From NCBI GenBank assembly GCA_043801595.1, contig JAZDLW010000028.1, forward strand, positions 1,336 to 65,335: 64,000 bases of DNA, read 5' to 3'. The position numbers and the translations under genes are program-made. How positions within the stretch are numbered: the stretch's first letter is position 1; every line of letters begins with the position of its first letter. The notes beneath the pieces are model-generated. The model searched no databases. It saw only the letters and a list, made by a program, of their open reading frames with translations, and had not been told where the DNA came from. Shown here piece by piece: positions 52,894 to 53,105 of the stretch. The stretch comes from Candidatus Aenigmatarchaeota archaeon (lineage in GTDB: Archaea > Aenigmatarchaeota > Aenigmatarchaeia > JACPZZ01).

Positions 52894-53105
52894 CCCCCGG
52901 TAGCTCAATTCGGTAGAGTACCCGGCTGTAGTTTGGTACTGCGAAAGCCGTACCAAGATTTGGCCCGTATATCAGAAACCGGGTTGTTGGGCGTTCAAAT
53001 AAGCCTTTTCTTTTGAGAAAGAAAAGCCTTAAGGGAAAAGAAAATTCGGAAAACTTAAGGAAAAATTTAGGATGAGCAAAGGCTTGGAAAATCGCCCCCG
53101 GGGGA
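52894..53105 (+). tRNA. tRNA-Tyr(GTA) with two introns: 37/38 (52932-52977, 46 nt) and T-loop 59/60 (53000-53091, 92 nt)
   Basis: Acceptor CCCCCGG/CCGGGGG; anticodon arm CCCGG-CTGTAG|A-CCGGG; T arm GGGCG-TTCAAA|T-CGCCC completed only after the insert. The second intron is closed by AAGCCTTT/AAAGGCTT with central helix TTCA/GGAA. Confidence 0.88.

Follow-up and report, generated by a model that had tools for sequence, protein, structure and literature searches.

The tRNA-Tyr locus and its flanks

The DNA analysed here (64,000 nt, hereafter the window) covers positions 1336-65335 of contig C24 of an 814-kb genome of Candidatus Aenigmatarchaeota (G000; 32 contigs, 45% GC, 86% complete). At 52894-53105, the window contains a tRNA-Tyr(GUA) gene composed of three exons and two introns, which together span a 212-nt precursor (Table 1) and are located in a gap without open reading frames of at least 50 codons on either strand. 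The GC content of the exons is 55-86%, and that of intron 2 is 33%. After removal of both introns in silico, ARAGORN calls the resulting 74-mer tRNA-Tyr(gta), with a complete cloverleaf and all four stems (7-bp acceptor, 4-bp D, 5-bp anticodon, and 5-bp T stems), which bears out the preliminary description of this locus as a tRNA-Tyr gene with two introns; when the second insert alone is removed, ARAGORN recovers tRNA-Tyr with a 46-nt intron in the anticodon loop. C52894 pairs with G53104 (C1-G72) and A53105 corresponds to A73, these residues being identical across all tRNA-Tyr orthologues; C1-G72 and A73 are archaeal/eukaryal elements for recognition by TyrRS and, together with G34, form the archaeal tyrosine identity set. 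The CCA sequence is not encoded at the 3' end of the gene.

Table 1. Location of the features discussed in this study (positions refer to the window unless a contig or locus is named)
Feature	Position	Strand	Description
Intron-bearing tRNA	43259..43363	+	Only Rfam match in the window
tRNA-Pro(UGG)	44349..44473	+	50-nt intron
Two adjacent hairpins	52755..52813		Between the upstream ORF (ends 52725) and the tRNA-Tyr promoter, outside the gene; dispersed two-hairpin repeats of the genus
Candidate BRE/TATA promoter element	52831..52842	+	AAGTTATATAAA; putative, read from the sequence
Exon 1	52894..52931	+	tRNA positions 1-37: acceptor 5' strand CCCCCGG, D arm, anticodon stem 5' strand CCCGG, CUGUAG with anticodon GUA
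Intron 1	52932..52977	+	46 nt, canonical position 37/38, after G37; relaxed BHB
Exon 2	52978..52999	+	Positions 38-59: A38, anticodon stem 3' strand CCGGG, variable loop, T stem 5' strand GGGCG, T-loop UUCAAA
Intron 2	53000..53091	+	92 nt, 67% purine, in the T loop between A59 and U60; near-strict BHB
Repeated module in intron 2	53000..53044	+	TAAGCC, pyrimidine arm, short loop, purine arm, GCCTTAAGG, second purine run
Exon 3	53092..53105	+	Positions 60-73: U60, T stem 3' strand CGCCC, acceptor 3' strand CCGGGGG, discriminator A73
Oligo-T tract	53111..53115	+	TTTTT, 5 nt past the tRNA-Tyr gene; putative archaeal transcription stop
Further module copies, G000	C13:958-1003; C21:93546-93590; C17:80159-80206; C23:43410-43452; C23:126462-126495; C21:50695-50740; C17:79912-79941; C17:23523-23562		
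tRNA-Arg(CCU) with two introns, G000	C23:168049-168200	+	Outside the window
Intron turnover, G004 locus	L054 (G004:C15:15360-15900)	-	tRNA with anticodon loop CUUAUAA; Tyr-type T-loop intron in G004 alone
Intron turnover, G000 counterpart	C13:8181-8317		Same anticodon loop; insert in the variable region
EndA gene, G000	L035:1195-1797		201 aa

The unspliced locus is missed by ARAGORN, both with default settings over the whole window and genome-wide with introns allowed, and Rfam reports no tRNA there, either at the gathering score or at E<=10. It had been suggested that standard tools may call the gene truncated; instead, both overlook the raw locus entirely. All three tRNA genes in the window escape ARAGORN at default settings. 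The two genes other than tRNA-Tyr are a tRNA-Pro(UGG), which ARAGORN finds only with introns allowed and which Rfam misses, and an intron-bearing tRNA detected by Rfam (Table 1). The ARAGORN anticodon calls for intron-bearing genes other than tRNA-Tyr are unreliable and were curated in part.

A TTATATAA box upstream of tRNA-Tyr is conserved among the orthologues, and the same AAGTTATATAAG box as in G000 is found ~30-45 nt upstream of the gene in the orthologues of G005, G002, G001, and G006. In G000, the promoter-like box is located ~20 nt further upstream than in the orthologues, and closer TA-rich boxes are also present. Downstream, a T5 tract follows directly after the discriminator in all tRNA-Tyr orthologues, and oligo-T tracts of this kind serve as transcription stops in archaea. 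The hairpin pairs adjoining the gene (CAYGGAAA..TTTCCRTG) represent dispersed two-hairpin repeats, and similar pairs occur in intron 1 of G002 and G004, in intron 2 of G006, and often in the loop of the repeated module described below. Since such repeats reside inside several introns, they account for much of the variation in intron length.

The 212-nt precursor folds more stably than shuffled sequences (z = -5.5), and its minimum free energy structure contains the acceptor stem, the T stem, and the inner helix of intron 2. The unconstrained structure (-78.0 kcal/mol) pairs the D region with the 38-46 region, whereas the fold constrained to the cloverleaf (-72.8 kcal/mol) is ~5 kcal/mol less stable.

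Two introns conserved throughout the genus

We compared the gene with its counterparts in six other species of the genus (G001-G006; groundwater MAGs of Candidatus Aenigmatarchaeota from sites in Northern California). The genus was assigned to this taxon through exact pattern matches to named public records, groundwater MAGs such as JACOVS01, JACQNZ01, JACPAF01, JACPZZ01, and JACQNY01. In all six congeners, the three exons recur in unchanged order and the two introns occupy matching positions, with differences in intron length and sequence. Exon 1 is 92-100% identical in the six congeneric genomes, exon 2 gives 23-nt BLAST matches of 91-100% identity in the orthologues, and exon 3 (TCGCCCCCGGGGGA) is identical in all seven genomes. 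Paired substitutions are found in the anticodon stem across intron 1 (CCCGG/CCGGG, UUCGG/CCGAA, CUCGG/CCGAG, and UCCGG/CCGGA). A comparison of orthologues had been proposed in the preliminary description, and its outcome is a two-intron layout conserved in seven congeneric genomes, with compensatory changes. Because the seven assemblies are independent, an assembly artefact is ruled out.

In the junction of intron 1, the central helix is formed by C32-G, U33-A, and G34-C (CUG/CAG) plus U35.U, the latter being present in most of the seven species. The 5' bulge (A36 G37|U) runs into the hairpin UUGGUAC/GUACCAA (TTGGTAC, 52933-52939; GTACCAA, 52950-52956), which is maintained by covariation in the orthologues, and the 3' bulge is AA|A38. 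With a central helix of 3 bp and U.U (G.U in one species), intron 1 departs from the strict 3-4-3 hBHBh' form, and its inner hairpin lies ~15 unpaired nt from the central helix on the 3' side, giving a relaxed, HBh'-like motif. Intron 1 varies from 44 to 179 nt among the orthologues, and no other copy of it was found in G000. The hairpin of intron 1 noted from the sequence is thus real, but its proposed likeness to the hairpin at 6092-6114 is due to chance: only the 7-mer TTGGTAC is common to both, it occurs 4 + 3 times in the window, which is about the number expected by chance, and the stems differ.

Intron 2 is built on the T arm. The 5' strand of its junction consists of the T stem strand GGGCG, UUCA, A58 A59|U, and AAGCCUUU, and the 3' strand consists of AAAGGCUU, GGAA, AA|U60, and CGCCC. 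This arrangement has 3-4-3 geometry, with two 3-nt bulges (AA|U), the 5-bp T stem as the outer helix, an 8-bp inner helix, and a non-standard fourth central pair. The inner helix is exact (AAGCCTTT, 53001-53008; AAAGGCTT, 53078-53085), and the central helix, TTCA (52994-52997) with GGAA (53086-53089), comprises U-A, U-A, and C-G pairs plus an A57.G mismatch, in agreement with the initial account of a 92-nt T-loop insert closed by an 8-bp stem, with a BHB-like junction at 59/60 and one A.G mismatch. The A57.G mismatch recurs in the T-loop junctions of all seven species, in every one of which the BHB is kept. When the seven orthologous junctions are aligned, pairing extends to 90.8% of cells, as compared with 31-70% when the partners are slid, and three pairs of the inner helix show compensatory changes. 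The base preceding the 3' cut is A, U, or C, and U60 is invariant. Among the orthologues, intron 2 ranges from 56 to 160 nt. A single tRNA gene thus carries two introns, one of them outside position 37/38 and both with a BHB-type junction, as in multiple-intron tRNA genes. Intron 2 contains T4CT4 in G000 and a T5 run in the orthologues of G001, G002, and G003, and such T runs could stop archaeal transcription early. The motif AGGAUGA in intron 2 resembles a C box, but a box C/D guide RNA was rejected as an explanation, as the D box is absent and the stretch is not conserved in the orthologues.

A module repeated in tRNA introns and between genes

Intron 2 begins with a module of ~45 nt with the sequence TAAGCC-CTTTTCTTT-loop-AAAGAAAAG-CCTTAAGG-GAAAAGAAAA. 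BLAST and nhmmer searches located the module in the introns of five named tRNA genes of G000, namely two tRNA-Ala genes, tRNA-Pro(CGG), tRNA-Arg(GCG), and tRNA-Tyr, as well as at one tRNA-like locus not called by any tool and at several intergenic sites (Table 1). At several intergenic sites of G000 and of its relatives (L039, L041, L044, L053), the upstream gene is terminated by the TAA of the module. One of the G000 sites (C21:50687, GGGTTCAAATAAGCC...) was considered as a T-loop intron and rejected, since an 85-codon ORF ends there, terminated by the module TAA, with no matching 3' strand of a T stem after it. In the relatives, BLAST with the module gave 1-10 matches per genome across several families, and the sampled loci lie either between genes or in introns, the latter being located at 37/38, at 59/60, or in the D loop.

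T-loop introns in other tRNA genes

A second tRNA gene with two introns was identified in G000 by our own scanner (Table 1); its raw locus is missed by ARAGORN and Rfam, and ARAGORN calls it Arg(CCU) after splicing. The inserts measure ~46 nt at 37/38 and 31 nt in the T loop at 59/60, and the T-loop junction is a strict BHB, with UUCA/UGAA as the central helix, the bulges AA|U and AC|U, and the inner helix GAACC/GGUUC. At the level of the class, a T loop with the pyrimidine arm no more than 7 nt behind it was counted 53 times, in 29 of the 101 genomes, compared with 7 control matches. The preliminary view of T-loop introns as rare and mostly reported in Thermoproteales therefore has to be qualified, as they are not confined to that group: they are documented in ARMAN-2 (PMC3239211) and common in the class studied here. 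Elsewhere in the class, a tRNA of another family whose anticodon loop is CUUCGGA (Arg UCG) apparently has a T-loop insert of ~190 nt (L012, G038:C5; L010, G032:C25).

Closely related genomes differ in these introns. In G004, a tRNA other than tRNA-Tyr has a T-loop intron that is identical at 50 of 58 positions to the 3' part of the tRNA-Tyr intron of G001 and that is absent from the G000 orthologue; the latter has an insert in the variable region that the G004 counterpart lacks (Table 1). A tRNA-Met(CAU)-like gene apparently has three inserts in G004 (L037, G004:C18; D region, 37/38, and T loop) and no T-loop insert in G006 (L042, G006:C5). In G084, five tRNAs on five contigs (L063-L067), with different acceptor and T stems, each contain a T-loop intron of 85-92 nt; identity among these introns is 88-100%, one pair being identical over 92 nt, a pattern that by sequence comparison looks like very recent copying of introns between T loops. 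The same identity of T-loop introns across tRNAs is found in G047 (L069, L072). On sequence grounds, the 88-100% identical T-loop introns in different tRNAs of the relatives point to intron copying, and the recurrence of related intron sequences in different tRNAs, both within a genome and within the genus, identifies them as a transposed (paralogous) intron family.

Four tRNA-Tyr genes from other families of the class have an uninterrupted T arm and the canonical intron only. Since this is so, the T-loop intron of tRNA-Tyr is, as judged by comparison of the genomes examined, a gain of this genus. More distantly, tRNA-Tyr genes of Promethearchaeota MAGs (L022, L027, L026, L032) share exon 1 with the gene described here; all four are interrupted by an intron at 37/38 and contain extra sequence in the variable region, and in two of them the T loop is enlarged as well, by an insert of ~30 nt.

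Splicing enzymes encoded in the genome

G000 encodes TyrRS (NF006330, 382 bits), RtcB, and one EndA with N- and C-terminal domains (Table 1). The best solved relative of this EndA is the M. jannaschii alpha4 enzyme (1a79), compared with which it carries a single basic insert of 6 residues (KIKRGPKEA), placed between its catalytic Tyr and His. The N. equitans alpha subunit aligns with it over the catalytic domain without gaps, insert included. In every genome of the genus, EndA is encoded by one gene, and no beta subunit was found, which points to a homotetramer. The insert is located at the position of a loop common to Nanoarchaea and ARMAN-2 (PMC3488258), designated L3 by Kaneta et al., and DPANN alpha4-type EndA proteins with this loop are reported to accompany more tRNA gene disruption (PMC5829648). 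In the ARMAN-2 enzyme, lysine mutants of the corresponding loop kept activity, with specificity unchanged (PMC3488258), and classical alpha4 enzymes have been described as requiring strict motifs (PMC3239211). We assume here that EndA cuts these sites, that it tolerates the A.G and U.U mismatches, and that the loop plays a role.

Transcription, intron removal, and status of the gene

Intron 2 could be regarded as the boundary of an adjacent split gene, in which its pyrimidine run would end a transcript of exons 1 and 2, while the promoter-like part of the module (the purine run plus CCTTAAGG) would start a separate exon 3 RNA, the two RNAs pairing via the inner helix, the T stem, and the acceptor stem and being trans-spliced as in Nanoarchaeum. 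Copies of the module also follow protein-gene stop codons immediately and precede start codons at a short distance, like a terminator/promoter cassette, T4CT4 or T5 runs are conserved in intron 2, the CCTTAAGG box of G004 lies ~27 nt before exon 3, and EndA aligns without gaps to the N. equitans alpha subunit, a processor of split tRNAs. However, the recognizable promoter of tRNA-Tyr and its orthologues is the canonical TTATATAA box, which differs from CCTTAAGG, and the distance of CCTTAAGG from exon 3 or from downstream start codons varies, so that CCTTAAGG was rejected as a TATA box. Moreover, the same module resides in canonical 37/38 introns of several other tRNAs, and the pieces of tRNA-Tyr are contiguous and collinear, for which cis transcription of a 212-nt unit is the simpler explanation. 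We therefore consider transcription in two parts very unlikely.

An insertion-inactivated pseudogene, produced by entry of a repeat element into the T loop, is even less probable, although intron 2 begins with a module dispersed in the genome, intergenic sites included, and the locus is rejected by standard tRNA finders. The question of whether this is the only tRNA-Tyr, raised in the preliminary description, can be addressed for the 86%-complete G000: no second tRNA-Tyr is present among 24 Rfam tRNA matches or 37 ARAGORN calls with introns allowed, and BLAST with the spliced tRNA-Tyr finds this locus only. In each of G001-G006, the same BLAST search gives one locus. Strong purifying selection acts on the exons in seven species, in contrast to the inserts, whose length and sequence have diverged, and both the compensatory changes in the anticodon stem and the maintenance of the BHB junction in each species argue against decay. 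The pseudogene reading is rejected because no other tRNA-Tyr was found in the 86%-complete G000, TyrRS and the splicing enzymes are encoded, and the gene is conserved, with compensatory changes, in seven species.

Removal of the T-loop insert by a route other than EndA and BHB cleavage, or its retention in the mature RNA as an expansion, is the least credible alternative, since the 3-4-3 geometry, the inner helix, and the conservation of the cut sites match BHB cleavage exactly and tRNA-Arg(CCU) of the same genome has a strict BHB at the same 59/60 site, even though the A.G mismatch in the central helix is conserved and the sole EndA is alpha4-like. A retained 92-nt insert would, in addition, destroy the contact between the T loop and the D loop needed for the L shape.

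We thus regard tRNA-Tyr(GUA) as a functional single-copy gene, transcribed as one ~212-nt precursor with two protein-spliced introns, with a probability of about 0.88. Transcription as one RNA, cleavage at the exact bonds, and ligation are the parts of this reading that we infer.

Discussion

According to the mechanism that we propose, one ~212-nt precursor would be transcribed, and the single EndA would recognize the bulge-helix-bulge at each intron and cut within the 3-nt bulges. RtcB would then join the three exons and probably circularize the introns, and CCA would be added after exon joining. In this scheme, 59/60 is the structural twin of 37/38, each site following the sixth nucleotide of a loop of 7 nt closed by a 5-bp stem, and because 59/60 is the exact counterpart of 37/38, the T arm and the intron may imitate a canonical substrate. 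The invariant UUCA of the T loop is predicted to pair with GGAA at the 3' end of intron 2, so that T stem, T loop, and intron together would mimic a canonical splice site.

As regards its origin, intron 2 most likely arose once, in the ancestor of the genus, from the repeated hairpin module found in other tRNA introns. A further-reaching explanation, which we put forward tentatively and hold to be less probable than its opposite, is that the T-loop intron is a domesticated mobile pyrimidine/purine-hairpin element of intergenic and tRNA-loop sites in Aenigmatarchaeia, for which the T loop would serve as a universal landing pad. Under this explanation, the 3' end of the element (GGAA/UGAA) would pair with the near-universal UUCR of the T loop, so that any tRNA might offer half a splice site at 59/60. 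If this were true, a DNA insertion at 59/60 would be immediately spliceable, and tRNA introns would be born from an intergenic repeat family.

The gene itself encodes an ordinary, essential tRNA-Tyr, and the interest of the locus rests mainly on the intron family, which is apparently mobile. Introns at 59/60 have been described before, in ARMAN-2 and in Thermoproteales, and the gene layout is known in other archaea; our literature search found no paper describing T-loop or multi-intron tRNA introns for Aenigmatarchaeota. Recognition of the gene adds an essential tRNA that was absent from the annotation of a DPANN lineage, for which standard tools yield seemingly incomplete tRNA sets, and a previous survey pointed out that hidden disrupted tRNA genes of this kind remain and require a manual search (PMC5829648). 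The coexistence of a single alpha4-like EndA with non-canonical multi-intron tRNAs bears on the proposed co-evolution of endonuclease type and tRNA disruption. The presence or absence of introns between congeners and the 100% identical T-loop introns in different tRNAs provide snapshots of intron gain outside Thermoproteales, and these comparative data make the question of how archaeal tRNA introns move more approachable.

Comparison with known systems

Among the systems described to date, ARMAN-2 combines many disrupted tRNA genes with a 59/60 intron in tRNA-Cys and with 53/54 plus 59/60 introns in tRNA-Pro, and the 59/60 intron of its pre-tRNA-Cys was cleaved in vitro by its own EndA (PMC3239211). 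Similarly to the tRNA-Tyr gene described here, these genes belong to a DPANN archaeon and have a T-loop intron at 59/60 with a BHB-type junction built on the T stem. In contrast, ARMAN-2 EndA is a three-unit epsilon2 enzyme with the ASL loop, whereas a single alpha4-like gene of ~200 aa is present here; in addition, the tRNA affected here is tRNA-Tyr, and its long T-loop intron (92 nt; 56-160 nt in the genus) is built from a repeated module and occurs alongside a canonical intron.

In Thermoproteales, as many as three BHB introns interrupt a single tRNA, both at the canonical position and elsewhere; related introns recur in different tRNAs, which is read as BHB-constrained copying, and are rapidly gained and lost between close relatives (Sugahara 2008 and Fujishima 2010, as summarized in PMC4033280, PMC4090602, and bioRxiv 10.64898/2026.10.13.758758). 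Multiple introns, both canonical and non-canonical, related introns in different tRNAs, and turnover between relatives are features shared with the genus studied here. Thermoproteales belong to TACK and have (alpha-beta)2 EndA with the crenarchaeal loop, whereas the present genus is placed in a DPANN class, in which the module is also intergenic and the T loop is a recurrent landing site.

In the split tRNAs of N. equitans, a helix next to a BHB-like motif brings the exon pieces together, and EndA carries out the processing. A helix-flanked BHB-like motif is likewise found in tRNA-Tyr, and the gap-free alignment of EndA to the N. equitans alpha subunit is a second point of likeness. Here, in contrast, the pieces are contiguous and in order within 212 nt, and there is only one EndA gene.

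With the canonical archaeal/eukaryotic tRNA-Tyr intron, the present gene shares the position of intron 1 at 37/38, and a 37/38 intron is also found in tRNA-Tyr of other Aenigmatarchaeia families, of a Woesearchaeota MAG, and of Promethearchaeota MAGs. Compared with tRNA-Tyr of the other Aenigmatarchaeia families, the second intron, located in the T loop, is specific to this genus among the genomes examined.
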